A stretch of 59,274 nt of DNA from an uncultured Desulfobacterales bacterium (GCA_964502365.1 CAZCWQ010000004.1:1-59274), one strand, 5' to 3'. Shown: positions 1-54,643, counted from the first letter of the stretch. Numbers and translations are program-made. Notes: generated by a model not told the origin, from the sequence alone.

Positions 1-357
<357 letters not shown>

Positions 358-577: not shown

Positions 578-1840
578 CTACTTAACGTGCATCCTTATTC
601 TGTGATATCGCTTTTTCCCTGCCCTTAGTAAGATTTCGTCTTTATTCAAGTCCTTCTCCGTAATCATCCTGTCAATAGCTTCGATTCGTCGTCCATTGAC
701 ATAGCCGCCGCCGTCTTTGATAAGCCGTCTTGCTGCGCTACTTGAATCTGCAAGACCCACCTCATGAAAGAGTTTAAAAGCTGCGATACCTTCTTTCAAT
801 CGCGCTTCATCCATAAATGAATCTGGCGTTACTGTTAAATTACCTGTAGCCTCGGTAACCCCTCCAATGGATGCTGACAGATTTACAAACTTGCTTAGCG
901 CATCGTTCCGAGCGTCTATCGCCTTTTCCTCGCCATGGGCAAGCTTTGTTGCTTCAAATGCTAGTTCGGCCTTGGCGTTGTTCAAATCGGCTCCTTGTAG
1001 CTTTTCAACCTCCCTCACTCTATCCATGCGCAAAAACGTGAAAAGGGCCATAAATCTTGCCACGTCCCGATCATCGGTATTTATCCAGTACTGATAGTAT
1101 TGTCGCGGGGTGGTCCTGTCAGCATCAAGCCAAATAGCACCTCTGGCAGTCTTGCCCATCTTATCACCCGAACTTGTTGTTATCAGTGGAAACGTAATGC
1201 CACGGGCAGTGCCCTGCTCAACGCGCCTAATAAGGTCAATGCCCGCCACAATGTTTCCCCACTGATCGCCCCCCCCCATCTGTAAGAGACAATTCTCAGT
1301 TCTGAAAAGGTGCAAGAAATCATAGGCCTGTAAGAGAGAATAGTTGAATTCGATAAAGCTGAGCCCAGTCTCGAGACGCATCCGGCAAGATTCACTGGCC
1401 AACATCCGGTTGACACTGAAGTGGCATCCTATATCCCTTAGAAAGGGGATATATTGCAGCTTTGTGAGCCACTGTGCGTTGTTCAGAAGCAGAGCCCGAT
1501 TGTTTTTAAAGTCTATGAACCTGCCCAATTGCCTCCTGAGGGCTTCGGCGTTTTCATTAACCTGTTGTTGCGTCAACATCTGACGCATTTCAATCTTCCC
1601 GCTGGGGTCCCCTACTAAGGCGGTGCCACCTCCAACCAGTGCAATCGGTCGATGGCCGTGTCGTTGCATATGGGCCAAAGCCATGATTGGAATCAAGCTT
1701 CCAACATGAAAACTGCTGGCTGTGGGATCAAAACCGATGTAGCAGGTCACGGAGTCCTCAAAAAGCCGATAGAGGTCCTCGTCGCCGGTAGTTTGCTCAA
1801 CAAAGCCGCGCTGTTTCAGTATGTCATAAACGTTTTCCAA
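578..1840 (-). CDS. tyrS: Tyrosyl-tRNA synthetase
   Basis: 420-aa ORF with a class I HIGH-region (FHVGSLIP), a KMGKT (KMSKS) motif and a C-terminal S4-like domain. The N-terminus is typical of TyrS. Confidence 0.95.
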   Translation of the reverse strand: MENVYDILKQRGFVEQTTGDEDLYRLFEDSVTCYIGFDPTASSFHVGSLIPIMALAHMQRHGHRPIALVGGGTALVGDPSGKIEMRQMLTQQQVNENAEALRRQLGRFIDFKNNRALLLNNAQWLTKLQYIPFLRDIGCHFSVNRMLASESCRMRLETGLSFIEFNYSLLQAYDFLHLFRTENCLLQMGGGDQWGNIVAGIDLIRRVEQGTARGITFPLITTSSGDKMGKTARGAIWLDADRTTPRQYYQYWINTDDRDVARFMALFTFLRMDRVREVEKLQGADLNNAKAELAFEATKLAHGEEKAIDARNDALSKFVNLSASIGGVTEATGNLTVTPDSFMDEARLKEGIAAFKLFHEVGLADSSSAARRLIKDGGGYVNGRRIEAIDRMITEKDLNKDEILLRAGKKRYHRIRMHVK

Positions 1841-3784: not shown

Positions 3785-3985
3785 AGGGTTACCCCCGCCA
3801 CAGTGCCGTGTCAGCAGCTTTTCCCGAACCTGTTTGCACAGGTGGGTACCTTGTTGCTCCTTTAGGCTTTTCTGTACCGAACAGAACGTGCACACCAAAG
3901 CAAGAGAAGGTTCCCGTTTCATATGTGTTGGCTCAGAGAAAATCTCCGCTGAACACAAACACGGCAGGGGTCTCACCCGCATTCC
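3785..3985 (-). ncRNA. ssrS: 6S RNA (SsrS) candidate
   Basis: It starts immediately downstream of the zapA stop, as in the conserved zapA-ssrS arrangement. The minus-strand RNA has a long closing stem (GGGUGAGACCCCUGCCGUGU pairing with ACACGGCA...GGGGGUAACCC). Its internal blocks resemble E. coli 6S: CUCUGAGCC.A.A..UGAAAC, AGAAAAGCCUAAAGG and GGUUCGGGAAAAGC. The ends are approximate. Confidence 0.7.
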
Positions 3986-3991
3986 TCAAAT

Positions 3992-4270
3992 TCATGCATT
4001 GGCATCAATATAGTCGAGCAGCCCTCTGCAACGCTGATCTATGTCCCTCAAAAGCTCCTCGCGGACACGCTTCATCCGAAAATAGTCGTTGGCAATATTC
4101 AAGGCTGCAAGAATGACTGTGTCCAGCTTGCTGGGCACCTCTCCAGAACTGCCGGCCTTTTCCACCTCTTTGACCACATAATCTGCAATTTTTTCAGCGT
4201 GAGAAGCTTCCGCGTCTGCCCTAAACGTATAAGACTGGTCAAATAGTTTTATGCTGATTAGTCGGTCCAC
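3992..4270 (-). CDS. zapA: Cell division protein ZapA
   Basis: 92-aa ORF with a ZapA-like sequence (IKLFDQSYTFRAD...LAALNIANDY). Confidence 0.85.
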   Translation of the reverse strand: MDRLISIKLFDQSYTFRADAEASHAEKIADYVVKEVEKAGSSGEVPSKLDTVILAALNIANDYFRMKRVREELLRDIDQRCRGLLDYIDANA

Positions 4271-41426: not shown

Positions 41427-42008
41427 ATGATCAAGACAGGAGTTATCCACGGTCGATTTCAGGTTCTCCACAATGACCATCTCAGATACCTGATGGCGGG
41501 AAAAGCCAGATGTCAGCATCTTGTAGTAGGCATCACCAACCCTGATCCAACACTTACAAGACAAGAGAATGCGGACCCACACCGAAGCAGGTCCTTTGCA
41601 AATCCTTTGACCTATTTTGAACGTTACGCCATGGTACGGGCAGCGCTGGAATCAGAAGGTGTGAACCAAGAAGATTTCTCGGTTGTGCCCTTCCCTATTA
41701 ACTTCCCAGATCTTTACAGGTACTATGTTCCACTTGAAGCCACCTTTTTTCTCACCATTTATGACGATTGGGGCAGGAAAAAGTTGGAACGGTTCCGCTC
41801 ACTTGGACTCGCAGTGGAAGTGTTGTGGGAACGACCTCTTGGCCAGAAAGGTCTCAGTGGTGGCGACATCCGTCTTCGAATGGTCAGGGGTGAACCTTGG
41901 GAAGACTTGGTTCCGCCGAGTACGCGACAACTTATAGAAGCCTGGGATATCCCGGTTCGGCTCAAAGATCTTCACAGATCAATTGGACGGCCAGCAGCTT
42001 CTGGTTAA
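41427..42008 (+). CDS. Cytidylyltransferase-family nucleotidyltransferase (NMN adenylyltransferase-like)
   Basis: 193-aa ORF with an (H/T)xGH-type motif in GVIHGRFQVLHNDH. Confidence 0.65.
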   Translation: MIKTGVIHGRFQVLHNDHLRYLMAGKARCQHLVVGITNPDPTLTRQENADPHRSRSFANPLTYFERYAMVRAALESEGVNQEDFSVVPFPINFPDLYRYYVPLEATFFLTIYDDWGRKKLERFRSLGLAVEVLWERPLGQKGLSGGDIRLRMVRGEPWEDLVPPSTRQLIEAWDIPVRLKDLHRSIGRPAASG

Positions 42009-42082
42009 TGAACAACTCAATTGGGCATCTGACTCCGGTTCTTCACGAACCTCAAAAACAACTAATTGACTAAGAAGATTGA

Positions 42083-44056
42083 CTAAGAAAAGTGTGGAGC
42101 AGGAGTGGGATTCGAGCTGTGTCCTCGGAGTATCCGACTATCTCCCACAGGTACTGTATACTGAATACTATCCAAGTAGTCCAGCAGGGTAGCCGCACGA
42201 CTACAGTTAATTCCGGCCAACTCCTTCAAGTCGACAATAGAAATCTGGCCATGTTTTGCTACATAGCCTCCAACTATGTTCTTGATTCCTTCCAGATTCT
42301 TCCTATGCATATAAGCTCCTTTTTGTAATGGATGCCTTTTCGACAAACGAGGGTTTCTTACGAATATCAGATCCTCAACTTTTGTTAGGAACGAAACGAC
42401 ATTATGTACCTCTCTGGGGTCAGCGTGATTCATGGCTATCAGCAAGGCGTTCATGGTGAAAACTGCATTTTGCTTCTGGGTGGCAAACTCTTCTATGGCA
42501 GAACGAACAATCTCTTGCGTAGGGCTTAAATGTGCTTGAAAGTCAGCCAGCCGAACGATTCCTTTGTTTGTGAAGATAACGTCTTCTTTCAATAGTTCCT
42601 CGATAAGATGCTCAAACACACCAATATCTATGTGCCTGAAATAAGACGACCTCATGTCCTCCTTGGGGATACCCCTTTCAAGAGGATTCGTCTCGTGAAA
42701 TTGTTTGATAACATTTACCATCTGGATCTTCATTGCATCGTATTTTTCTCTATGAAAGAATTGATCATTTCCCAGTGAAACGATTCTGCATTTTTCTTCA
42801 AGACTCGTCAGGATTTTTTCTATTCTCTTCCGACTAACCCCGGTCTTGCTGCTCAAAGTCTTTATGCAGATTGGGCAGCATGTCTCCTCCTTAATTACAT
42901 TTTCTATGACCTCGTCATCTGCGCCATCCATGATAAGTCTCAAATACTGAACATTAGCTCCGCCCCCTCTTCTAAACTTCCTTCTTGCGATCTCGAGAAC
43001 AGTTCCGCCTCCAATAGTGGTCACCGGACTCAAGGTCCTAACAATATATCTATCGAAAGGAAGCGGGGTGAGTCTGTCAAGAAGGCGAAACTGCACAAAG
43101 GCACTTTCTCCCGGACGGACCACATCTTTATCCATAAAAACCATAAGCGCATTCGTTTCACTTGCACCTGTATGAAATCTGATTCTTGTCCGGTTTTGCA
43201 AGGGCTTTGTTTGAGAAGCTAAATAGTAGAATCGAGCATTTAGGAAATGAGAGGACATCAAACTTCCCGGTTCACCGACAACCATTCCCCTACAAATGTC
43301 GCTCAGTCCAACCTGAGGCAGGTTCAGTGCCACCCGCTCGCCAGCATATGCTTCATTAACCTTTTTCCGATAAACCTGGATGGAACGAACTCTGTCCCGT
43401 ATGCTTGAAGGATATATCTCTATCTCATCTTCCTTTCCAATCTTACCTGAAGCCATAGTTCCAGTCACAACAGTTCCAAATCCCCGCATATGAAACACTC
43501 TATCAATGGGAAGACAAAAAACCCCTTCAGGATCCTTTGTCAGACTAGTTTCGCCAAGTGTCTCCAAGGCAGTCTCGATCTCCGCTTTGCCTTCAAGGGT
43601 GCGTACAGAAAAAGGTACGCACGGGGCACCTTCCAAAAAGGAGCCCCTGGTTAAGTCATTGATTTCATCCATGGCCATTGCTATGAGTTCTTGATCTACC
43701 AAATCCACCTTTGAAAGCACTACTAAACCCTGCCTAATACCCAGTAGCTTGAGGATATCAAGATGTTCTCTGGTTTGGGGCATCACACCATCATCAGCAG
43801 CCACCACCAACATTGCCACATCAATCCCGCATATACCGCGAAGCATATTTTTTATGAAACGCTCATGACCCGGCACATCTATAAAGGCCATATTTTGACC
43901 AGAGGGAAGGCTATAAGGAGCAAAGCCCGGCTGTATAGTCAACCCTCTTTGTTTTTCTTCCTGCAAAGAATCTGTGTCTATCCCGGTCAGGGCCTTAACC
44001 AAGGCTGTTTTTCCATGATCAACGTGTCCAGCCGTTCCCACAACCACATGCTTCAA
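42083..44056 (-). CDS. selB: Selenocysteine-specific elongation factor SelB (start placed at TTG 44056)
   Basis: It has GTPase motifs AGHVDHGKT, DVPGHERF and SKVD, EF-Tu-like domains II/III and about 250 aa of C-terminal winged-helix repeats ending in LDYLDSIQYTVPVGDSRILRG. GGAGG (44068-44064) lies 7 nt upstream of the TTG. The 40 codons further upstream in the track ORF are the tRNA gene read as protein. Confidence 0.9.
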   Translation of the reverse strand: MKHVVVGTAGHVDHGKTALVKALTGIDTDSLQEEKQRGLTIQPGFAPYSLPSGQNMAFIDVPGHERFIKNMLRGICGIDVAMLVVAADDGVMPQTREHLDILKLLGIRQGLVVLSKVDLVDQELIAMAMDEINDLTRGSFLEGAPCVPFSVRTLEGKAEIETALETLGETSLTKDPEGVFCLPIDRVFHMRGFGTVVTGTMASGKIGKEDEIEIYPSSIRDRVRSIQVYRKKVNEAYAGERVALNLPQVGLSDICRGMVVGEPGSLMSSHFLNARFYYLASQTKPLQNRTRIRFHTGASETNALMVFMDKDVVRPGESAFVQFRLLDRLTPLPFDRYIVRTLSPVTTIGGGTVLEIARRKFRRGGGANVQYLRLIMDGADDEVIENVIKEETCCPICIKTLSSKTGVSRKRIEKILTSLEEKCRIVSLGNDQFFHREKYDAMKIQMVNVIKQFHETNPLERGIPKEDMRSSYFRHIDIGVFEHLIEELLKEDVIFTNKGIVRLADFQAHLSPTQEIVRSAIEEFATQKQNAVFTMNALLIAMNHADPREVHNVVSFLTKVEDLIFVRNPRLSKRHPLQKGAYMHRKNLEGIKNIVGGYVAKHGQISIVDLKELAGINCSRAATLLDYLDSIQYTVPVGDSRILRGHSSNPTPAPHFS

Positions 44057-44079
44057 AATGCAACCTCCATTGCAGAAGT

Positions 44080-44171
44080 TGGAAGGGGCAAGGGGAATCG
44101 AACCTCCTCCTCGTTTCTTAGACGAGGCCAACGGGTTTGCAGCCCGCGGGGCGCCCAGCACCTTTGCCCCT
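44080..44171 (-). tRNA. tRNASec-like tRNA with Cys anticodon GCA and U73 (selC*/tRNAReC-like)
   Basis: Hand fold of 92 nt. The acceptor stem is 8 bp (AGGGGCAA/TTGCCCCT) and the D arm is GGTG/CGCC. The anticodon stem GCGGG/CCCGT carries the loop CTGCAAA. The variable arm is CCTCGT/ACGAGG (6 bp). The T stem GG(A)GG/CCCC carries the loop TTCGATT. The discriminator is T and CCA is encoded. Confidence 0.85.
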
Positions 44172-44374
44172 AACAAACCATAGATACGAAAATGGATTTT
44201 GTCTCTACACTCTTTTCTCGATTGGTCGATTCGTACAGATTACGCTGCCGGAATACTGTTTGCTAATGAAAGAATCTTATGCGGCAGGTCTTCTTCTCGC
44301 CTCCGGTCTCCCCTTTTCTCGTGTTCGGGATCAGTTGAGCCTATTTTACAGACATTCTATCTGGAGAATATCAA

Positions 44375-44437
44375 TATGTCAAATAGATAATGTCAATCCT
44401 ATTGTCAGGGAAATATAGTGATAGTCTATGTCAAATA
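44375..44437. promoter_or_regulatory. Cluster of TGTCA-containing repeats upstream of the tRNA-selB unit
   Basis: TATGTCAAATA occurs twice (44375-44385 and 44427-44437). AATGTCAAT and ATTGTCAGG lie between them. AATAGATAAT is at 44382-44391. Confidence 0.4.
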
Positions 44438-44536
44438 CGATCCTGGAAGGCCTTTCGACTATCCATCTCTGAGATAGGTGCTTCATTTTGAGGCAAGAAC
44501 ATCTTTGGAGTAACCCGATTCAAGGCCGCTCCTCGA

Positions 44537-47135: not shown

Positions 47136-47292
47136 GCGCGTCCGTTCGCCTAGGGCTGATCGCCAAGATTGGGGTATTCGAAGGTCAATTCTGAAAGGGA
47201 AATCTTAACGAAAGGGGGTGTATCGATACCTTAGCACATGCTCTCATAGGCAAATGCCTTTGAGAATCTCTTCAATAATAGGAGGCGACAAA

Positions 47293-49389
47293 ATGAGGAG
47301 GAGAAACTATTACTTATTAACTTTCGTCGTGTTAATTGTTTTAGCTGGTCTCTGCCTAAACGGTTGCGGCGAGTCGGTGGACTTGGCGGAGCAAGGATCA
47401 ATATCAGGTTTGTCTGAAGAAACTCCGTCAGGTTCTGTCTTGGCTTTTGGGACAGGTGATTACCCAAACTCTGAACTTCTTGTGTCTGGAGAGGAGATTG
47501 AAGACAACCTGTCCAAGGTGCGGAAAGCGAGCCTTCAGGCCAGCCAGGCAGAGACTGCCGAATCTTATGACTTCGTCATCATTGACGCAAGAGGCGAACC
47601 ACTGCCCGACCCACAGGACCCCGATTATGACCAGCACCCGTACGTGCAAGGGCACATTCCGGGTGCTATTAGCCTAGCTTGGCAGCAGTTTGGCGCACCA
47701 AACTTGAACCCGGTGTCAGAACTTGAAGATGTCTTGACCAACACAGGTATCACCAGAGACATGACCATCGTCATTTATGATGATACGACAGCATCATGGG
47801 GTGCCGCCGGTCGCGTCTTTTGGACTCTGGAATACTTGGGGTGTGAAGATGTGCATCTTTTGCAAGGCGGCTGGGACAAATGGGTGGCCGACGGCCGGCT
47901 TACTGAAACCAGGGCCAACACTTTGCCGGATGCTCCAGCGTTTGTCGCCCAAGTCAACAATGACATCATGGCCACAAAAGAACACGTAAGTGACCGGCTA
48001 GAGGATGACGACTTCGTGATCATCGACTCCCGGACCGACGAGGAATACAACGGCTGGACGCTCTACGGTGAAGCCCGGGGCGGACACGTTTCGGGGGCCG
48101 TGCAAATCCCTTATGAGTGGTTTTTTTACGAAGACAAGACCATATTGAGCAGCGATGATCTGCAAGACCTGTTTGAGTCCAGGGGTATCACTCTGGACAA
48201 GGAGGTGAGTTCTTACTGCACGGCTGGTATCCGCAGCGGATTCGTGTACTTTGCACTCCGCCTAATGGGGTATCCGAACTGCTCGAACTACGATGGGTCC
48301 ATGTATGACTGGGCTGTTGCTTCCGTGGCTGATCCCGATGTCTACCCCATGGAACAAATGGCCAATTACCAGAAGCTTGTACATCCAGGATGGGTGAAAA
48401 ACCAGCTTATCGACGGGAACAACGCTGGCAAACCCTATGTCATCGTTGAAACGTCGTGGGGCCCTGCCGGCGACTATTATAATGACGGTCACATTCCAAA
48501 AGCAGTACACGTGAACACGGATGAAATCGAATATGACTGTTTCAACCCCCGCAATGACTGGCCTGTAGACCCCGGAGACCCTCCTTGCTGGGATCGCAGC
48601 ACCACTGAGGAGGAGGATGCCGCTAAAGGTCTAGGGCCAGATGACGCGCTCCCTAAAAACTGGTGGAATCTCTACCCAGACCAATATCTACTGCCTGCCA
48701 TCGCCTATATGGGGATTGATAAGGACACGACGGTCGTTGTGTACAGCAAAAGTTTCTCGGCCGCAGCACGGATCGTGTGGACGTTGATGTATGCGGGCGT
48801 TGAGGATGTGCGCCTGCTTAACGGCGGCAAGGACACCTGGGTAGCAGCCGGCTACACATTGGAAACCACAGCCAATGATCGCACCCCCGTGTCTGAGTTT
48901 GACCCCGAAGACCCTGGCGCAACATCAGCCCTTCACCCGGAGTACCTTGTGGATACGGCCTATGTCCTCCAGGCAACGGCCGATCCAAACAACGTCGATC
49001 CTCCTGCCGTGATTGCCGAGATTCGCAGGTGGGAGGAGTTCATCGGTGCCTCCCGTCCCTATTCCTATATCCCCGCTGATGGCCGTATTGCAGGTGCCGT
49101 ATGGGGCCACAATACAGATGCCTTTGTCGACGCTGACGGGACTCTTCGAACCTACACGGAGGTTGAGAAATTGTGGTCCGAAAATGGCATTACCTCCGAT
49201 ATGTCGGCGAGCTTTTACTGAGGGACAGGATGGAGGTCAAGTTTGGCCTGGTTTTTGGCCCACCTGATGGGCTGGGACAATATCACCAATTATGATGGTT
49301 CATGGTATCAATGGACTGAGGGGCTGGATCCGCTGGATCCCGGCTATCCCCCTAACCCCGTGGTGGATGAGGAGCCAGATCTGCCCTAG
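47293..49389 (+). CDS. Four-domain YnjE-like rhodanese lipoprotein with in-frame TGA (49219-49221) at the last catalytic Cys position; candidate selenoprotein
   Basis: The ATG at 47293 follows GGAGG, and a lipobox is present (LCLNGC). The domains run inactive/active/inactive/active, with active loops YCTAGIRS and FY-TGA-GTGWRSS. Reading through the TGA gives 55 further in-frame codons (GTGWRSSLAWFLAHLMGWDNITNYDGSWYQW...) that complete the rhodanese fold. Confidence 0.75.
49243..49272 (+). promoter_or_regulatory. Candidate SECIS-type hairpin(s) downstream of the TGA
   Basis: There are two mutually exclusive small hairpins 22-50 nt after the TGA. One is TTGGCC(tggttttt)GGCCCA and the other is GCCCA(cctga)TGGGC. 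Neither was evaluated with a model. Confidence 0.3.
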
Positions 49390-49694: not shown

Positions 49695-51545
49695 ATGTGT
49701 CTTTACAAAACCATAGCCCCAGACTCGGTAAGAAAAGACTTGGCCCATGACGGCGTTGATTCATTACCTAGGACAGAGGCAAAAAGCATCTTTGAAAAAT
49801 GCATCAACTGTGAGCTCTGCCAAAAGGAGTGCCAACTCCTCAGAAAGTACGGCAAGCCCAAGGATATTGCAGAATCCTATAACCCTTCTGATAATGACCA
49901 TCAGGCTGTGCCCTTTGAGTGCAGCCTTTGCCAGCTTTGTGCTGCGGTGTGTCCCGTGGATGTCAATCCTGGCAACATGTTCCTGGAGATGCGCCGGGGG
50001 TTGGTAAACCAGAGGAATGGGGACTATCCAGAATATTCCACTATCCTCGGGTACGAACGGCGGGGAACGTCCCGTCGCTATACCTACTATGCTATTCCTG
50101 CTGGTTGTGACACCATCTTTTTTCCAGGTTGTACCCTCCTGGGCACCAGGCCAGACAAGACATCAGAACTCTATGATCACATGAAAAAGGACATTCCCGC
50201 ACTGGGGATCGTCCTCGACTGCTGCACAAAGCCCTCACATGACCTTGGTCGACAAGATTATTTCAATGCTATGTTTGATGAAATGAAAGGTTTTCTTATA
50301 AGAAACGGCGTTTCAAGAGTTCTCGTTGCATGTCCCGACTGTTATGATGTCTTCAGAAAGTACGGCGAGGAGCTCTCTGTCAGAACAGTCTATGAGTTCA
50401 TGGTAGAAAACGGTTTGCCGAACAAAGAAGAAGTGAATGGAACTGTGACCATTCACGATCCATGTGTTATCAGGTGGGAAGAGGCCATTCATTCTGCTGT
50501 CAGAGATCTGTGTACAAGAAAGGGACTAACCATCGAAGAGATGCCCCATCATGGGAAAACAACAATGTGCTGTGGGGAAGGGGGCGCGGTCGGTTGCGTG
50601 TCACCCCATCTTGCAAACAAATGGGGAGCTCTCATCAAGAAGGAAGCTAATGGCAGGAGGATTGTTACTTATTGTGCTGGGTGTGCAAATTTGTTAGATG
50701 CCATAACACCCACCAGCCATGTCCTGGATGTCTTATTTGAGCCGGAAACCACACTGTCTGGCAAAGCCAAGGTTTCCAAGTCGCCGGTTACCTACCTGAA
50801 CCGGCTAAGGCTGAAGAAGCGGCTCAAGAATACGGTCAATGCTTCAGTAACACGGGAGAGGACATTCACTGGGGGGGAGGAAAAGAAAAAAGGAACAGTG
50901 ATTAAGCGCGTCTTTTTTCTTTTGGCTATCCTGACTGCGATTCTGGCAGTGCGGTTCACAGGTGCAGCACATTACCTGCAACAAGAGACGCTCAGGCAGT
51001 GGATTCAGGGTTATGGAGCACTGGCTCCGGTTGTTTACATGCTCATATACACGGTTGCACCGGCCCTCTTTTTGCCTGCCCTTCCCATCACCATAGTGGG
51101 CGGAGTCCTCTTTGGCCCGTTCTGGGGCGTGGTTTACACTATCACCAGTGCTACCTCAGGTGCTTGTGTGGCCTTCATCATATCACGTTACATAGCCAGG
51201 GAATGGATCGAGGAAAAGCTGAAAAGTCCGAAATGGCATCAGCTTGACGAGGGGGTGCAACGGCATGGATGGAAGGTTGTTGCCTTCACCCGTCTGATAC
51301 CGTTGTTTCCTTTTAACCTGCTTAATTACGCCTTCGGCCTTACGAAAATAAGATTTATCCACTATGCCATAACGACATTCATCTGCATGCTCCCAGCCTG
51401 CATTGCATATGTTGTCTTTTCAAGCTCGCTGCTCGATGTGATAAAAGGAAGGATATCTCCCGCATTTATTGCCGGGATGGGTCTCATTGTGCTGGTCTCG
51501 TCAGTGCCCATTTTTTACAGACGCTACAAGGCAAAAAAAGGATGA
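49695..51545 (+). CDS. Fusion protein: 2x[4Fe-4S] ferredoxin motifs plus two CCG Cys-rich domains (HdrD/GlpC/LldE-like) plus a C-terminal TVP38/DedA (SNARE-associated) membrane domain
   Basis: The ferredoxin motifs are CINCELCQKEC and CSLCQLCAAVCP. The CCG-type motifs are ...PGCTL...DCCTKP... and HDPCV...MCCGEGG...YCAGC. From about aa 400 there are TM helices and the TVP38 signatures GVLFGPFWG and FTRLIPLFPFNLLNYAFG. Confidence 0.8.
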   Translation: MCLYKTIAPDSVRKDLAHDGVDSLPRTEAKSIFEKCINCELCQKECQLLRKYGKPKDIAESYNPSDNDHQAVPFECSLCQLCAAVCPVDVNPGNMFLEMRRGLVNQRNGDYPEYSTILGYERRGTSRRYTYYAIPAGCDTIFFPGCTLLGTRPDKTSELYDHMKKDIPALGIVLDCCTKPSHDLGRQDYFNAMFDEMKGFLIRNGVSRVLVACPDCYDVFRKYGEELSVRTVYEFMVENGLPNKEEVNGTVTIHDPCVIRWEEAIHSAVRDLCTRKGLTIEEMPHHGKTTMCCGEGGAVGCVSPHLANKWGALIKKEANGRRIVTYCAGCANLLDAITPTSHVLDVLFEPETTLSGKAKVSKSPVTYLNRLRLKKRLKNTVNASVTRERTFTGGEEKKKGTVIKRVFFLLAILTAILAVRFTGAAHYLQQETLRQWIQGYGALAPVVYMLIYTVAPALFLPALPITIVGGVLFGPFWGVVYTITSATSGACVAFIISRYIAREWIEEKLKSPKWHQLDEGVQRHGWKVVAFTRLIPLFPFNLLNYAFGLTKIRFIHYAITTFICMLPACIAYVVFSSSLLDVIKGRISPAFIAGMGLIVLVSSVPIFYRRYKAKKG

Positions 51546-52368: not shown

Positions 52369-53850
52369 TCATCCGGTCGTCAATAGACTATTTTGCCGTG
52401 CCACTGACCTGTAGATTGTAATAAGAACGAAGGCTGCTACCGGTCCTATCCACGTCATGAATGCAGTTACGTCACCTTCAACCCATTGTCCACCCAAGGC
52501 ATAGGGTATAAGGACACGATATCCCAGGAAGACTGACCAAGTAAATATTAATCCTGCTGGCCCTGCAACAAAAGGGAGAAAACAGACCAGATATAATGCG
52601 TACCAAGGATGAAGGGTGGGCGTGAAAAGCAAGAACGTTATCATGATATTGTATAGCACTGAAAAAAGCATTGAAATTATTTGCTTGCTGGCACACTGGG
52701 TGTCGTATTCCAATTTCTTAAGGTAAAGCTTAACATATAGAAAAATTGTCGCTGTGAGAAAGGCGGAGCCCAGAGCCAACCTAGCAGCATTTCCGGAGAC
52801 CATTAAACGCCGCAAACTTCGATAGGCAAAGCTGCCAAATTCCCAGTGCTTGGCGTATTCTCTCAGAGTGCCGAGGGCATTTAGGACATCGGGAAAGAAA
52901 GGGAGTGTCAACAATAAGAATCCAATCATGATGCCTATCATTGCAAATGTCAGGCATCGTCTAGGCAATAGGATCAGACATCCTGGTATGAAAATGAGGG
53001 CGAAGAGTTTAACGAAACCTGCACAGGCAAGAGCCAAACCTGCAAACAAAAATAAATGGATTCTAGTTGATAACAAATGACCGTGGACTAAAGAAACTAA
53101 GCCATGGGAGTTATTAGTAGACCGCAAAGCAGCTATCAAGGTCAAGAAGCCAAGAAGAAAAAACAGTAACCCGGCCCCGTCTACATGACCTGAAGCGGCA
53201 ATTTCAAGGACCGGCAGGGGGTGCCATGCATAGAGGGCGGCCCGCCAAGCTGGGAGTTCCAGAGTAGAGAGCAGCCGCAGGATTACAGCGCATGTTGCCA
53301 GGTCCATAGCCACCAGCATGGATTTAAGGCCCAGTACGCTGCTGCCTAATGCGGATCCTGCCATGAATATGAGTTGAGCCGCAGGAGGATAAATGGTGAC
53401 TAGGTCTGGGTGGTTAACTTGTTCCAACAAATTGACTAGGATGCCACCCAGAGGTTGGCTGTCTGCGGGAGGAAGAGAATAAGGATTGTGCCCTGACAGG
53501 GTCTGAAGTCCGTCCCATAAGTATCGATAGATATCATCTGAGAGTTCAGGTGATCGAAACCAAAAAATGAGGCGAAGGCATACAGCCACAAGCATGATCA
53601 TACAAGGCGTCCATTTGATTGCTTGCTTTTCTCCCAAATACAGAGCAATAGCGAGAAGAACAGTCACGTTAGCCGTGACACCAGTGAGAGTGGGAACAGC
53701 GAGCCGCAAATCTGCCTTAATAGCTAATAAACCATAGGAGGCCACGATGAGAAAAGGTATTCCCCACGTGAGCCAGAAGTTCGTCCTCATCTTATCGAGT
53801 ATTTTAGTACCGTCCATCTTGATGCCGTGCGTTTTTCCGGCAGAATGCAA
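52369..53850 (-). CDS. Polytopic GT-C-type glycosyltransferase (DUF2029/GT87-like); the true start may be an internal Met (about 53790)
   Basis: 493-aa ORF with more than 10 TM segments. The first loop has an Asp-containing motif (SDDIYRYLWDG) typical of lipid-linked-sugar-dependent GT-C enzymes. Confidence 0.65.
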   Translation of the reverse strand: MHSAGKTHGIKMDGTKILDKMRTNFWLTWGIPFLIVASYGLLAIKADLRLAVPTLTGVTANVTVLLAIALYLGEKQAIKWTPCMIMLVAVCLRLIFWFRSPELSDDIYRYLWDGLQTLSGHNPYSLPPADSQPLGGILVNLLEQVNHPDLVTIYPPAAQLIFMAGSALGSSVLGLKSMLVAMDLATCAVILRLLSTLELPAWRAALYAWHPLPVLEIAASGHVDGAGLLFFLLGFLTLIAALRSTNNSHGLVSLVHGHLLSTRIHLFLFAGLALACAGFVKLFALIFIPGCLILLPRRCLTFAMIGIMIGFLLLTLPFFPDVLNALGTLREYAKHWEFGSFAYRSLRRLMVSGNAARLALGSAFLTATIFLYVKLYLKKLEYDTQCASKQIISMLFSVLYNIMITFLLFTPTLHPWYALYLVCFLPFVAGPAGLIFTWSVFLGYRVLIPYALGGQWVEGDVTAFMTWIGPVAAFVLITIYRSVARQNSLLTTG

Positions 53851-54643
53851 TGGGGCTGCAACTTATGACCTTGCTCTTATCGAACCAGCGACTCTCAACC
53901 GCAACCTTTCAGATTGGATCGTCCTCGATGCTCGTCCGAAAACCGAATGGCGAACTTCACATATACATGGTGCCATGTCGTTTTCCTGGGAAGACTATAC
54001 TTCAACGGACAAGAAAAATATACCTTACAGGATCTGGTCGCCAGAAAAGATAGCTGCGGCCCTGGGAAACATGGGAATTAGTGAAAGCAGTCGAATCGTA
54101 GTGTATGGAGATGCGGACACAAGCTGGGGGGGAGAAGGATGGGTGTGTTGGGTATTCACATGGCTGGGGCATCAGGGACCCATCCGTGTGCTCGCCGGGG
54201 GGATCCAGTCCTGGAAAAAGCATGGCTTTCCCATGGGGCCACATGTTAGACAGACGGCAGGTGTACCAGTGGAGTACAGATTCAAAGTGAGGCCACAAGT
54301 CAATATCACAACAAATGAGATTGAGCAGGAAAAATCGAACATCGTACTGGTTGACACGCGTTCAACCCTTGAGTGGATCAAAGGACATCTCCCAGGCGCG
54401 GTTCATGTAAAGTGGAACCGATTCTACTCGGGAAAGGATCGACGTCCCCTGAGCTCCAATGAGATGAGAGACCTTTTGCACCGGCATAAGGTTGGCCAAC
54501 AGAAACCAGTAGTTTATTACTGCACGGGCGGGATTCGATCGGCATATGCTTGGCTGGTGCATACGTTATCCGGAATGCCACCAGCACGCAACTACGAGGG
54601 GGGAACGGAAGCCTGGAAGCGTCTTTCTTCCGATTCCGGTTAG
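53747..54643 (+). CDS. Two-domain rhodanese sulfurtransferase (SseA/TST-like)
   Basis: 298-aa ORF. The N-terminal domain is inactive (YGDADTSWG) and the C-terminal active loop is YCTGGIRS. A hydrophobic N-terminus suggests export. The start is uncertain because it overlaps the divergent gene. Confidence 0.8.
   Translation: MRKGIPHVSQKFVLILSSILVPSILMPCVFPAECNGAATYDLALIEPATLNRNLSDWIVLDARPKTEWRTSHIHGAMSFSWEDYTSTDKKNIPYRIWSPEKIAAALGNMGISESSRIVVYGDADTSWGGEGWVCWVFTWLGHQGPIRVLAGGIQSWKKHGFPMGPHVRQTAGVPVEYRFKVRPQVNITTNEIEQEKSNIVLVDTRSTLEWIKGHLPGAVHVKWNRFYSGKDRRPLSSNEMRDLLHRHKVGQQKPVVYYCTGGIRSAYAWLVHTLSGMPPARNYEGGTEAWKRLSSDSG

Follow-up and report, generated by a model that had tools for sequence, protein, structure and literature searches.

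A probable selC*-selB* module with altered tRNA and elongation-factor details in an uncultured Desulfobacterales bacterium

We describe a full-length SelB gene that lies directly behind a Cys-identity mimic of tRNASec in a 59,274-nucleotide stretch of DNA (here the window). The locus is a fresh example of a system that has been known since 2017, with a few unusual details, and it leaves the picture of the genetic code unchanged. We put at roughly 65% the probability that it is a selC*-selB* module in the sense of Mukai et al. 2017, i.e. a tRNAReC together with a dedicated SelB* that delivers cysteine at UGA codons accompanied by a SECIS. The selC*-selB* modules belong to a small group of natural systems in which a tRNA has apparently been duplicated along with its own elongation factor, and such a joint duplication would open a parallel decoding route in which cysteine replaces selenocysteine. 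To our knowledge SelB* has never been characterised biochemically, and the published recoding experiments reportedly relied on factors that were canonical or from E. coli alongside the tRNAs; well-defined examples, with start codon, promoter and partner tRNA in hand, are usable material for SelB* biochemistry.

The genes and reading frames at the locus are as follows.

42083..44176, minus strand: 697-aa open reading frame, with TTG as its first codon, that runs through the tRNA gene
44057..44176, minus strand: 40 spurious codons at the N-terminal end of the 697-aa frame, produced by reading through the tRNA
44080..44171, minus strand: selC*-type tRNA (tRNAReC), called by ARAGORN as a 92-nt tRNA-Cys(GCA)
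44057..44079, minus strand: tRNA-selB* spacer of 23 nt, from the encoded CCA end to the TTG, containing the Shine-Dalgarno sequence GGAGG
42083..44056, minus strand: selB* coding sequence, 657 aa plus stop, with a TTG start

An initial annotation had placed a full-length SelB right behind the tRNA mimic and had held that the annotated frame masks the tRNA; ARAGORN, Rfam, TIGR00475 and the coordinates bear out both points. The tRNA sits wholly within codons 1-33 of the 697-aa frame, and homology to SelB and EF-Tu begins with residue 1 of the 657-aa version. We rejected the 697-aa frame as a real protein and regard it as an ORF-calling artefact that spans the tRNA. The same annotation had proposed a TTG start for a 657-aa protein beginning 23 nt past the tRNA, and each element is present: an in-frame TTG (44056..44054) is preceded by GGAGG (44068..44064) with, on reading the sequence, a spacer of 7 nt. 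The 657-aa product opens MKHVVVGTAGHVDHGKT and its N-terminal length equals that of A. aeolicus SelB. The gene call on a Logan contig that is 100% identical (L081) gives the same 657-aa product (an identical protein is on record only on one 3.8-kb Logan contig), and in the nearest relative (L082, at 67% identity) the TTG is retained, with a G-rich Shine-Dalgarno sequence at equal spacing. A GTG at 44047, which lies 16 nt from the Shine-Dalgarno sequence, was rejected as the start. The locus illustrates how ORF callers can conceal a tRNA by stretching selB* across the tRNA gene. An annotated selB frame also traverses a tRNA gene in the overlapping or nested selB-selC genes of alphaproteobacteria (Mukai 2021, PMC8124441), for which a coupling between tRNA processing and SelB expression was proposed; in those genes, however, it is the 3' end of selB that holds the tRNASec, and translation may include the extension, whereas here the tRNA precedes selB* and the added N-terminal codons are an artefact.

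The tRNA matches the Rfam tRNA-Sec family (RF01852) over 44083..44172 on the minus strand with 50.0 bits, the gathering score being 47. It has the marks of a tRNAReC, namely U73 with a GCA anticodon on a tRNASec-like fold with an 8-bp acceptor stem, a bulged A (A51a) in a 4-bp T-stem, and a long variable arm (6-bp stem). It also has an A1:U72 pair and an encoded CCA, and its D-arm, with 5 bp and a 3-nt loop, is unlike the 6-bp/4-nt D-arm of bacterial tRNASec. Of 74 unique 92-nt homologues, 64 have A-U as the eighth acceptor pair and 8 have G-C; for pair 1-72 the counts are 32 A-U and 42 G-C, and several compensatory pairs occur in the stem of the variable arm. Thus the 8/4 fold of the tRNA is backed by covariation. 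(Note that the T-stem was fixed by the search pattern and could not vary in this set.)

In the module as we envisage it, a cysteinyl-tRNA synthetase would load the tRNA with cysteine. U73 and GCA are the two strongest identity elements for CysRS, and the GCA-bearing selC* tRNA of Desulfomonile tiedjei is cysteinylated in vitro by the normal CysRS of that organism (PMC5389517). A1:U72, on the other hand, is described as unrecognised by ordinary CysRS (PMC7609411), and has been reported to block that enzyme and to accompany CysRS* and a UCA anticodon (PMC5389517, PMC7609411). Here A1:U72 occurs with GCA, a combination found in 2 of 103 tRNAs, and so falls outside the subclass in which A1:U72 goes with UCA and cysS*. 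A Pfam search of 31 of the approximately 40 larger ORFs in the window detected no CysRS-like gene, the only class-I synthetase being TyrRS; nor does a cysS* directly follow selB*, the next gene being convergent and cytidylyltransferase-like. The pairing of A1:U72 with GCA, taken with the lack of a CysRS-like gene among these ORFs, counts against charging with cysteine. It could instead be that the tRNA does not carry cysteine in vivo, and that SerRS charges it, SelA converts the product into Sec-tRNA(GCA), and SelB* places selenocysteine at UGC/UGU or at UGA. Such a route would accommodate both A1:U72 and the want of a cysS* in the window, and would sit well with a long variable arm and G73/U73 (deemed compatible with serylation in allo-tRNAs, PMC5389517), with a SelB* pocket that retains the Arg and Asp residues used for Sec, and with the switch from U73 to A73 in three related tRNAs. 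We consider it very improbable given the CysRS identity elements, the behaviour of the D. tiedjei tRNA in vitro and a D-arm that is not that of bacterial tRNASec; moreover, a cysS* may sit elsewhere in the genome. (A tRNASec with a GCA anticodon is reportedly present in Aeromonas salmonicida, which a selenocysteine route here would resemble.) To read UGA, a G34 anticodon has to form a G-A wobble mismatch, which we count against UGA decoding by this tRNA.

The protein can be divided as follows.

42983..44056, minus strand: EF-Tu-like domains D1-D3 (aa 1-358), with the GTPase motifs and the aminoacyl pocket
42122..42973, minus strand: four winged-helix domains (aa 362-645), from the secondary structure of the model
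42134..42208, minus strand: WH4 motif at aa 617-641, altered relative to canonical S-R-K-Y...T-x-R...D-x-R

It is a member of the SelB family with full-length SelB architecture. It scores 322 bits against TIGR00475 (NCBIfam selB; cutoff 242.25), with aa 4-644 aligned to profile positions 1-580 of 581, and contains the Pfam domains GTP_EFTU, GTP_EFTU_D2, Beta-barrel_SelB, SelB-wing_2 (aa 449-503) and SelB-wing_3 (aa 598-643; 24.6 bits, cutoff 23.2). An AlphaFold model (pLDDT 86.3, pTM 0.75) has four helix-helix-helix-strand-strand units in its C-terminal half (aa 366-643), and its best Foldseek matches in the PDB, over 651-652 columns, are 4ZU9 (E=2.6e-43) and chain z of 5LZB (TM 0.71/0.75). 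Identity is 25% in the structural alignments to 4ZU9 and 5LZB and 34-40% to the canonical SelBs found in genomes. The initial annotation had regarded loss of GTPase residues as telling against its reading; on alignment, the motifs GHVDHGKT, DVPGH and SKVD ((S/T)KxD) are all intact. Residues F45, D185, R186 and R241 of the aminoacyl pocket (A. aeolicus numbering) are likewise all retained. In A. aeolicus SelB the Sec pocket is defined by Phe45, the Asp185-Arg241 salt bridge and a basic residue at 186, and free L-cysteine occupies it in the crystal (PMC4605307). Two positions characteristic of bacterial SelB differ: His229, which contacts the alpha-amino group in A. aeolicus SelB and is 95% conserved in both of the SelB clades described below, is Tyr here (codon 43372..43370; of the 22 nearest, this protein alone has Tyr), and Arg30 of switch I, 96% conserved in canonical SelBs, is Ser. 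We envisage that SelB*-GTP would use the Arg/Asp pocket and the 8-bp acceptor helix to hold the Cys-tRNA. Transfer RNAs with an 8-bp acceptor are poor ligands for EF-Tu.

A scan of the GTDB representative genomes with a tRNA pattern returned 119 loci, of which approximately 110 are selC*-type. A SelB was found downstream of 100 of these tRNAs, at a median gap of 31 nt and at 50 nt or less in 66 of the 100. All eight of the fetched relatives with at least 45% identity have the tRNA 19-31 nt upstream. None of the 13 sampled loci at 40% identity or below has one directly upstream, but two of them (L003 and L077) have a tRNA-SeC approximately 1.6-2.7 kb away. Because the adjacency recurs in approximately 100 independent genomes, it is more than chance. 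The initial annotation had called for the protein to be placed in a SelB phylogeny. In a tree of 199 SelBs, built by neighbour joining only, 124 sequences, made up of 68 tRNA-linked SelBs and the highest-ranking database hits, split off from 75 unlinked SelBs, which include those of Desulfobacterium and Syntrophales genomes, in 100 of 100 bootstrap replicates; the window protein is among the 124, in the tRNA-linked clade and apart from the canonical SelBs, and carries the signature residues of that clade (A73R, E89D and D273N). Our survey of approximately 100 loci thus documents a tight linkage and a factor that forms its own clade with signature residues. Three features of SelB* as described by Mukai et al. 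2017, the hosts of which are Desulfobacterales or Syntrophobacterales, are found together here, i.e. an (8/4) tRNA 23 nt upstream, membership of the tRNA-linked clade and a Desulfobacterales host.

Placement in this clade, together with the complete selABCD set that Mukai et al. 2017, who named selC* and selB*, found in all selC*-bearing genomes (PMC5389517), leads us to favour the reading of the protein as a dedicated paralogue. (The selC*, selB* and cysS* genes and the complete selABCD set of selC* genomes are also described in PMC7609411.) The other option left open by the initial annotation, namely that this is the only SelB of the organism and serves both the canonical tRNASec and the Cys mimic, fares less well, as does the variant in which selenocysteine has been lost and the pair is a remnant; we judge these quite unlikely. 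They are in keeping with the retention of the selenolate/thiolate-binding pocket residues and with the incomplete Sec systems that Mukai et al. noted on some metagenomic contigs (PMC5389517). We also detected no second selB or selC in the 59-kb window, and no locus with two SelB homologues among those fetched from relatives (8-22 kb), although stretches as short as the window or an 8-kb locus cannot demonstrate absence. A comparison of assembly prefixes gave no overlap between the canonical-SelB loci and the selC* loci sampled, and the best SelB match among the genome contigs was 46% identical. Against a sole SelB stand the 100% bootstrap separation of the protein from canonical SelBs of the same orders, the selABCD sets cited above, which were complete in every selC* genome examined, and the finding of a canonical SelC alongside tRNAReC (PMC13582414).

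For a dedicated SelB* the most likely function, to go by the literature, would be the delivery of Cys-tRNA to UGA/SECIS sites. SelB* would carry the tRNA to a UGA followed by a SECIS-type hairpin, cysteine would enter where selenocysteine otherwise would, and selenoprotein mRNAs could then be completed independently of selenium. The closest experimental precedent is the clostridial tRNAReC, which likewise mimics tRNASec, has Cys identity and carries GCA or UCA as its anticodon, and for which SECIS-dependent recoding of UGA to Cys by tRNAs of both kinds has been reported (Vargas-Rodriguez 2018, as cited in PMC13582414 and PMC8124441) and a backup role under selenium scarcity proposed. The initial annotation had treated a selenium-starvation backup and a Cys-at-UGA channel as alternatives, and that opposition does not hold, since the published proposal joins the two (as cited in PMC13582414). 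The clostridial tRNAs reportedly use ordinary SelB and have no dedicated SelB*, in contrast to the diverged factor encoded with the tRNA here. A screen of the window for in-frame TGA read-through found no selenoprotein genes; its best candidate was rejected as just the ATP synthase b subunit with a non-coding stretch ahead of it, and the others resemble noise.

Within the tRNA-linked clade the window protein belongs to a 22-member split with 100% bootstrap, the other labelled members of which are Nitrospirota/Thermodesulfovibrionia and 'Deltaproteobacteria' MAGs. The tRNA has U72 in all four members in which it was read, usually with a GCA anticodon, and about half of the sub-lineage, the window protein included, has an altered WH4 motif, which is found in 11 of the 22 closest relatives. 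In the window protein the motif reads N-C-S-R...T-L-x-D...T-V-P...D-S-R, as opposed to the canonical S-R-K-Y...P-L-x-E...T-x-R...D-x-R, so that R618, K619 and R636, which are conserved in 100%, 99% and 97% of 75 canonical SelBs, are replaced by C, S and P. None of the 75 has the 11-aa insertion in WH3-4 (aa 568-578), which the model renders with low pLDDT over aa 574-577. The initial annotation had argued from the C-terminus, which indeed contains ...LDYLDSIQYTVPVGDSRILRG..., that the SECIS-binding module is retained; the four winged-helix domains are present, but the three residues just named are not. It had also treated loss of SECIS-binding residues as decisive, and the replacement of WH4 residues that are at least 97% conserved in canonical SelBs does not settle that point, the argument being one of conservation alone (the literature searched does not list the SECIS-contact residues). 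The altered form N-[CS]-[SN]...T-[LV]-P-V-G is in turn kept by 11 relatives of 50-67% identity, which argues for selection on an altered surface rather than decay, and the mRNA signal used by this sub-lineage may differ from the canonical SECIS.

The same substitutions admit two further explanations. The first is that this copy of the pair is in decay or has been repurposed, so that SelB* would have dropped out of SECIS-directed decoding and be non-functional or have a regulatory, non-decoding role. R618C, K619S, R636P, R30S and H229Y could be signs of this, as could a wing_3 domain barely over the Pfam cutoff; the GC content of the module, which is lower than that of the flanking genes, and its absence from the site in the nearest genomes suggest an accessory module of recent acquisition. 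We regard decay or repurposing as very unlikely in the face of an intact 657-aa frame with all GTPase motifs and a confident four-winged-helix model, and of the conservation not only of the WH4 variant but also of the Shine-Dalgarno sequence, start codon and promoter element. The second is that the sub-lineage has left the SECIS/UGA mechanism for another mRNA signal or none, for UGC/UGU codons, or for charging by an enzyme other than CysRS (e.g. SerRS/SelA). This explanation draws on R618C/K619S/R636P, on U72 in the four tRNAs and on the lack of an adjacent CysRS*; we think it doubtful, but if true, the pair would constitute a recoding channel not yet described.

A comparison with known systems sets the SelB* reading in context. 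The selC*-selB* loci of D. tiedjei and Desulfococcus biacutus (PMC5389517) share with this one the 8/4 tRNA with U73, bulged A and a GCA or UCA anticodon, the second-type selB directly downstream, the Desulfobacterales affiliation and membership of the tRNA-linked SelB group. They differ in that PMC5389517 ties A1:U72 to UCA and cysS*, whereas here it goes with GCA and no cysS* stands behind selB*; a sub-lineage that combines an altered WH4 with an A1:U72/GCA tRNA thus breaks the published A1:U72-UCA-CysRS* rule. Canonical SelBs (those of E. coli, A. aeolicus (4ZU9) and M. thermoacetica) have the same D1-D3 and four winged helices, GTPase motifs and pocket, but lack the clade signatures, the replaced SRKY and T-x-R of WH4 and the WH3-4 insertion, and are partnered by a tRNA of Ser/Sec rather than Cys identity. 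Archaeal MM1309, which is reported in PMC4329189 as a SelB-family GTPase that binds Cys-tRNACys and not selenocysteinyl-tRNA, is an analogy only, being without the bacterial winged-helix SECIS-binding half and without a linked tRNASec mimic.

The host is an uncultured Desulfobacterales bacterium and the module is chromosomal: TopA is 74-81% identical to that of Desulfobacterales MAGs, with which the order secD-secF-dprA-topA is shared. In the eight closest genomes synteny extends up to topA and is followed by full divergence, the module being absent from the site. Because synteny is lost after topA, no empty-site comparison is possible, and a clean insertion into a conserved site was rejected for the same divergence of the flanks.

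Upstream of the tRNA we recognise the following features.

44378..44391, minus strand: candidate regulator site, a conserved element ATTATCTATTTGAC that overlaps the -35 box
44354..44382, minus strand: sigma-70-like promoter TTGACA-17-TAGAAT (11/12), from a scan and conservation in relatives
44396..44367, minus strand: weaker sigma-70-like promoter, overlapping the TTGACA-17-TAGAAT promoter
44172..44353, minus strand: leader of approximately 180 nt, from the promoter to the 5' end of the tRNA

We propose that the tRNA and selB* would be made as one precursor from the conserved promoter approximately 180 nt upstream of the tRNA, and that RNase P and 3' processing would free the tRNA and leave the selB* mRNA with a leader of at most 23 nt that carries the Shine-Dalgarno sequence. 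In E. coli, the thrU, tyrU, glyT and thrT tRNA genes are co-transcribed with tufB, and processing of the tRNAs releases the mRNA. There too, tRNA genes lie just upstream of the gene for their aminoacyl-tRNA carrier, but those tRNAs are ordinary substrates among the many of EF-Tu, whereas the pair here is presumed to be exclusive. The sigma-70-like sites in the region are not enriched (4 observed against 3.9 expected from shuffles), so that support for the promoter call comes from its conservation in relatives and not from scan statistics. The leader has no Rfam match at E<=1 and folds no better than shuffled sequences (z=0.45), and the distance from promoter element to tRNA is shorter in relatives, at 79-128 nt. 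No convincing terminator and no Rfam match were found 3' of selB*.

A separate promoter or terminator between the two genes, which the initial annotation had singled out as evidence against a shared transcript, did not turn up in a sigma-70 and terminator scan of the 23-nt spacer on the selB* strand, and the spacing is tight across approximately 100 loci. Expression of tRNA and selB* from separate transcripts, with selB* transcribed from a site of its own within the tRNA gene or shortly past it and the adjacency a matter of shared history, is unlikely in our view: the gap here is mostly ribosome-binding site, two-thirds of the loci (66/100) have gaps of at most 50 nt, and in L001, L002 and L086 the tRNA is packed, operon-like, approximately 10-15 nt behind the preceding gene. 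What speaks for it is that a sigma-70 scan covers no other promoter types and that the gap exceeds 200 nt, reaching 1.5 kb, in approximately 10% of loci. Transcription of the module may also arrive by read-through from the upstream glycosyltransferase gene. The upstream element recurs as ATTATCTATTTGAC or AACTATTTGA ahead of the tRNA in L082, L184/L083, L084/L196 and L169, often accompanied in relatives by ATAGATA/TATCTAT inverted repeats, and may bind a regulator. A LysR-type gene adjoins the locus in L083 and L085.

The SelB gene and the tRNA gene overlap in the original calls, as follows.

42083..44176, minus strand: long open reading frame (ORF) of 697 aa with a TTG start (ORF list)
44080..44171, minus strand: tRNA-Cys(GCA) of 92 nt (ARAGORN)

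This tRNA is the only one that ARAGORN found in the whole window, and the Rfam tRNA-Sec model matches at its position (50.0 bits against a gathering score of 47). The initial annotation had proposed that the long ORF runs through the tRNA gene, and the two sets of coordinates agree with this: the first 33 codons of the ORF contain the whole tRNA. It had further placed the start of SelB at an in-frame TTG at position 44056, with GGAGG 7 bases upstream (44068..44064) and 23 bases between the tRNA's encoded CCA and the start codon, yielding a 657-aa product with the N-terminus MKHVVVGTAGHVDHGKT. These distances were read again from the sequence. Moreover, a gene caller produces the same 657-aa product on a Logan contig that is 100% identical to the window, the first residues of this product and of A. 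aeolicus SelB align with each other, and in the closest relative (locus L082, 67% identity) both the TTG and, at identical spacing, a G-rich ribosome-binding site are conserved. The observation is accurate in all details.

That the gene directly behind the tRNA encodes a full-length SelB, as had also been claimed, is supported by a score of 322 bits on NCBIfam TIGR00475 (selB; cutoff 242.25), by its Pfam domains (GTP_EFTU, GTP_EFTU_D2, Beta-barrel_SelB, SelB-wing_2 and SelB-wing_3), and by an AlphaFold model (input alignment of 56 sequences; mean pLDDT 86.3, pTM 0.75) whose predicted fold consists of three EF-Tu-like domains and then four winged-helix units. The top PDB matches of the model are both full-length bacterial SelB structures, with ~650 aligned columns each (4ZU9, E=2.6e-43; 5LZB chain z, TM 0.71/0.75).

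The initial annotation had considered this protein to be either the only SelB of the organism or a dedicated paralogue, and had proposed a SelB phylogeny as a check. We aligned 199 SelBs: 68 full-length tRNA-linked SelBs, the database matches P0002-P0060, and 75 unlinked SelBs, whose loci lack a selC*-type tRNA (tRNASec-like, with cysteine identity) immediately upstream and which include SelBs of Desulfobacterium, Syntrophus and Syntrophales genomes. The neighbour-joining tree (100 bootstraps) divides with 100% support into 124 sequences, comprising all tRNA-linked SelBs and the top database hits, and the 75 unlinked ones. Signatures of the former, SelB* clade are R in place of A73 (98% of SelB*; A in 93% of canonical SelBs), D in place of E89 (96%; E in 95%) and N in place of D273 (98%; D in 95%), together with T115S, V128A, V149F and Y342L. 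The window copy falls in the tRNA-linked clade by bootstrap support (100%) and signature residues, and within it in a 22-member group (100% bootstrap) that includes Nitrospirota MAG223 and Thermodesulfovibrionia copies. This sequence-based tree places the window SelB as a SelB* paralogue; the presence of a canonical selB in the same genome is a separate matter.

The linkage of tRNA and selB* is not peculiar to the window. Among relatives with at least 45% identity, the tRNA lies 19-31 nt upstream of the SelB gene in all eight loci fetched, and at 40% identity or below it is directly upstream in none of the 13 loci sampled, two of which (L003 and L077) have a tRNA-SeC 1.6-2.7 kb distant. When one genome per GTDB species was scanned with the 3' pattern of the tRNA, at least 119 loci matched; about 110 of those listed are selC*-type tRNAs. 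Nearly all of these come from Thermodesulfobacteriota MAGs, and a few carry the label Nitrospirota or Thermodesulfovibrionia. A same-strand SelB homologue stands behind 100 of the listed tRNAs, at a median gap of 31 nt (≤50 nt in 66 and ≤200 nt in 90). In a minority of loci the gap is 0.7-1.5 kb (L090, L143 (Desulfacinum), L091, L094, L099 and L158).

The window tRNA has an acceptor stem of 8 bp (A1:U72 to A8:U65), U73 and an encoded CCA, a 5-bp D-stem, a 6-bp anticodon stem with the loop CUGCAAA, a 6-bp variable-arm stem, and a 4-bp T-stem interrupted by a bulged A. Of 74 unique homologues of 92 nt, 64 have A-U and 8 have G-C as the eighth acceptor pair; at pair 1-72, 32 have A-U and 42 have G-C. 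Compensatory pairs of several types occur in the variable stem; invariance of the T-stem is uninformative because this stem belonged to the search pattern.

Anticodon, first acceptor pair and base 73 in the 103 listed tRNAs with an encoded CCA
UCA, A1:U72, U73: 43 tRNAs
GCA, G1:C72, U73: 33 tRNAs
UCA, G1:C72, U73: 21 tRNAs
UCA, G1:C72, A73: 3 tRNAs
GCA, A1:U72, U73: 2 tRNAs (the window and L177)
GCA, G1·U72, U73: 1 tRNA (L082)

The selC*-like UCA tRNAs with A73 in place of U73 are those of L118, L132 and L149; the SelBs 94-260 nt behind them fall within the SelB* clade, and A73 may represent a switch of amino-acid identity inside the family. Locus L165 has two selC-like tRNA genes (1000..1091 and 4168..4258) on a single contig, 3 kb from each other, and no SelB homologue follows them. 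The selC* tRNA was reportedly renamed tRNAReC by Vargas-Rodriguez et al. in 2018.

The window locus is a rediscovery of the described selC*-selB* module. Mukai et al. 2017 (PMC5389517) reported selC* tRNACys as tRNASec-like tRNAs with U73 and a GCA or UCA anticodon and, for Syntrophobacterales and Desulfobacterales, an additional selB (selB*) downstream of an (8/4) selC* gene, the same arrangement as in the window. Every selC*-bearing genome had the full set of selA, selB, selC and selD, and a subgroup had a truncated cysS* after selB*, always with A1:U72 and a UCA anticodon (PMC5389517), whereas the window combines A1:U72 with GCA. A review (PMC7609411) restates the selC*/selB*/cysS* findings. 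A 2026 article (PMC13582414) cites Vargas-Rodriguez et al. 2018 for decoding of UGA as Cys by tRNAs of either anticodon when a SECIS lies downstream, and describes how tRNASec and tRNAReC divide their tasks as unclear. From this literature and the conserved anatomy, the best-supported function of the window protein would be that of a dedicated SelB paralogue delivering Cys-tRNA to UGA/SECIS sites.

As for the charging enzyme, L100, L116, L134 and L190 have a cysS*-like ORF that overlaps selB* at its stop codon, and an HGD-D family gene stands behind selB* instead in L088, L145 and L197; neither follows selB* in two members of the window's subgroup, L177 and L085. In the window the gene after selB* is convergent and cytidylyltransferase-like, and TyrRS is the sole synthetase among the 31 Pfam-scanned of ~40 larger ORFs. 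Given GCA and U73, the simplest candidate would be the ordinary CysRS. Against this candidate stands the published view that A1:U72 blocks it, this pair being reported as not recognised by ordinary CysRS (PMC7609411).

The GTPase motifs of the window SelB are intact. F45, D185, R186 and R241, pocket residues that (themselves or as E. coli equivalents) hold the thiol of bound cysteine in the A. aeolicus crystal, are all present; position 30 is Ser instead of R30. His229, which in A. aeolicus SelB contacts the aminoacyl alpha-amino group and is 95% conserved in both the canonical and the SelB* clade, is replaced by Tyr (codon 43370..43372, minus strand), a residue unique to this protein among its 21 nearest relatives; the identical Logan contig (L081) has the same base in this codon.

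The C-terminal SECIS-binding module, which had been described as kept, is so in its winged-helix fold but not in several residues of its fourth winged-helix domain (WH4). There, the canonical S-R-K-Y...P-L-x-E...T-x-R...D-x-R becomes N-C-S-R...T-L-x-D...T-V-P...D-S-R, replacing R618, K619 and R636 (100%, 99% and 97% conserved in canonical SelBs). R618 and R636 are 90% and 84% conserved in SelB* overall and only ~41-45% in the 22-member group, 11 proteins of which share the alternative motif N-[CS]-[SN]...T-[LV]-P-V-G. The literature searched yielded no list of SECIS-contacting residues. Together, the model and this residue pattern suggest that the fold is kept while the presumed RNA-contact surface is altered in a conserved manner. 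The novelty of the locus is modest: it adds a member, on a Desulfobacterales chromosome, to a sub-lineage otherwise mostly seen in Nitrospirota-labelled MAGs, and brings a tRNA of a rare type (A1:U72/GCA), a changed WH4 motif and the unique H229Y.

The initial annotation had suggested a single tRNA-selB transcription unit, and our scan of the minus strand between the two genes saw no promoter-like or terminator-like site. Two features lie upstream of the tRNA, the first from a promoter scan that overall gave no enrichment over shuffles.

44382..44354, minus strand: promoter-like site, TTGACA-17-TAGAAT (promoter scan)
44378..44391, minus strand: conserved element ATTATCTATTTGAC, overlapping the -35 box (recurrence upstream of the tRNA in relatives)

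The tRNA and selB* would share a single precursor transcript, and excision of the tRNA would leave selB* with a short leader; the E. coli tRNA-tufB operon is an analogous precedent for a tRNA cut from a shared precursor. The 180-nt leader matches nothing in Rfam, and its folding is unremarkable. ATTATCTATTTGAC also occurs upstream of the tRNA in L082, L184, L084/L196 and L169, and this recurrence raises the idea that it may be a dedicated regulator site travelling with the module. The hosts in which it overlaps the -35 box of the module come from different phyla. ATAGATA/TATCTAT inverted repeats lie near it, and L083 (8765-9667) and L085 (5070-5981) each have an adjacent gene for a LysR-type regulator. 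The tRNA is ~10-15 nt behind the preceding gene in L001, L002 and L086.

Genes recurring beside the selC*-selB* pair (in L001, L002, L082-L086, L088, L145 and L197) are HGD-D and BcrAD_BadFG (activase-type), a TusA-DsrE fusion, YedE-like Sulf_transp, Se_S_carrier and Carb_kinase. The relatives' neighbourhood is one of sulfur/selenium handling, which the window copy lacks. On the plus strand of the window, 3-10 kb from the module, are genes for a 667-aa protein with three rhodanese domains (47218..49221), a 298-aa protein with two (53747..54643), and an HdrD-like Fer4/CCG protein fused to a VTT membrane domain (49695..51545); an in-frame TGA is not evident in these three.

The window is chromosomal core DNA (TyrRS, RNase Y, 6S RNA, ATP synthase, RodA/PBP2/MreBC, RNase G, SecDF, DprA, TopA and a 16S rRNA end). 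Its TopA is 74-81% identical to those of uncultured Desulfobacterales MAGs, which also have secD-secF-TPR-dprA-topA. In the eight closest MAGs (L287-L294), synteny ends right after topA, with no cytidylyltransferase-like gene, selB* or tRNA following. The selB* region (42000..44500) has a GC content of 43-47%, versus 50-52% for topA and neighbouring flanks. The lower GC, the loss of synteny after topA and membership in the 22-member group suggest that the module is accessory and possibly transferred. Two RNA genes mark the other end of the window.

3788..3973, minus strand: 6S/SsrS RNA (Rfam RF00013, 102.7 bits, full length)
1..357, minus strand: bacterial 16S rRNA gene, 5' end (289 bits)

This rRNA gene is cut by the start of the window, as at a contig break, and TyrRS and RNase Y adjoin.
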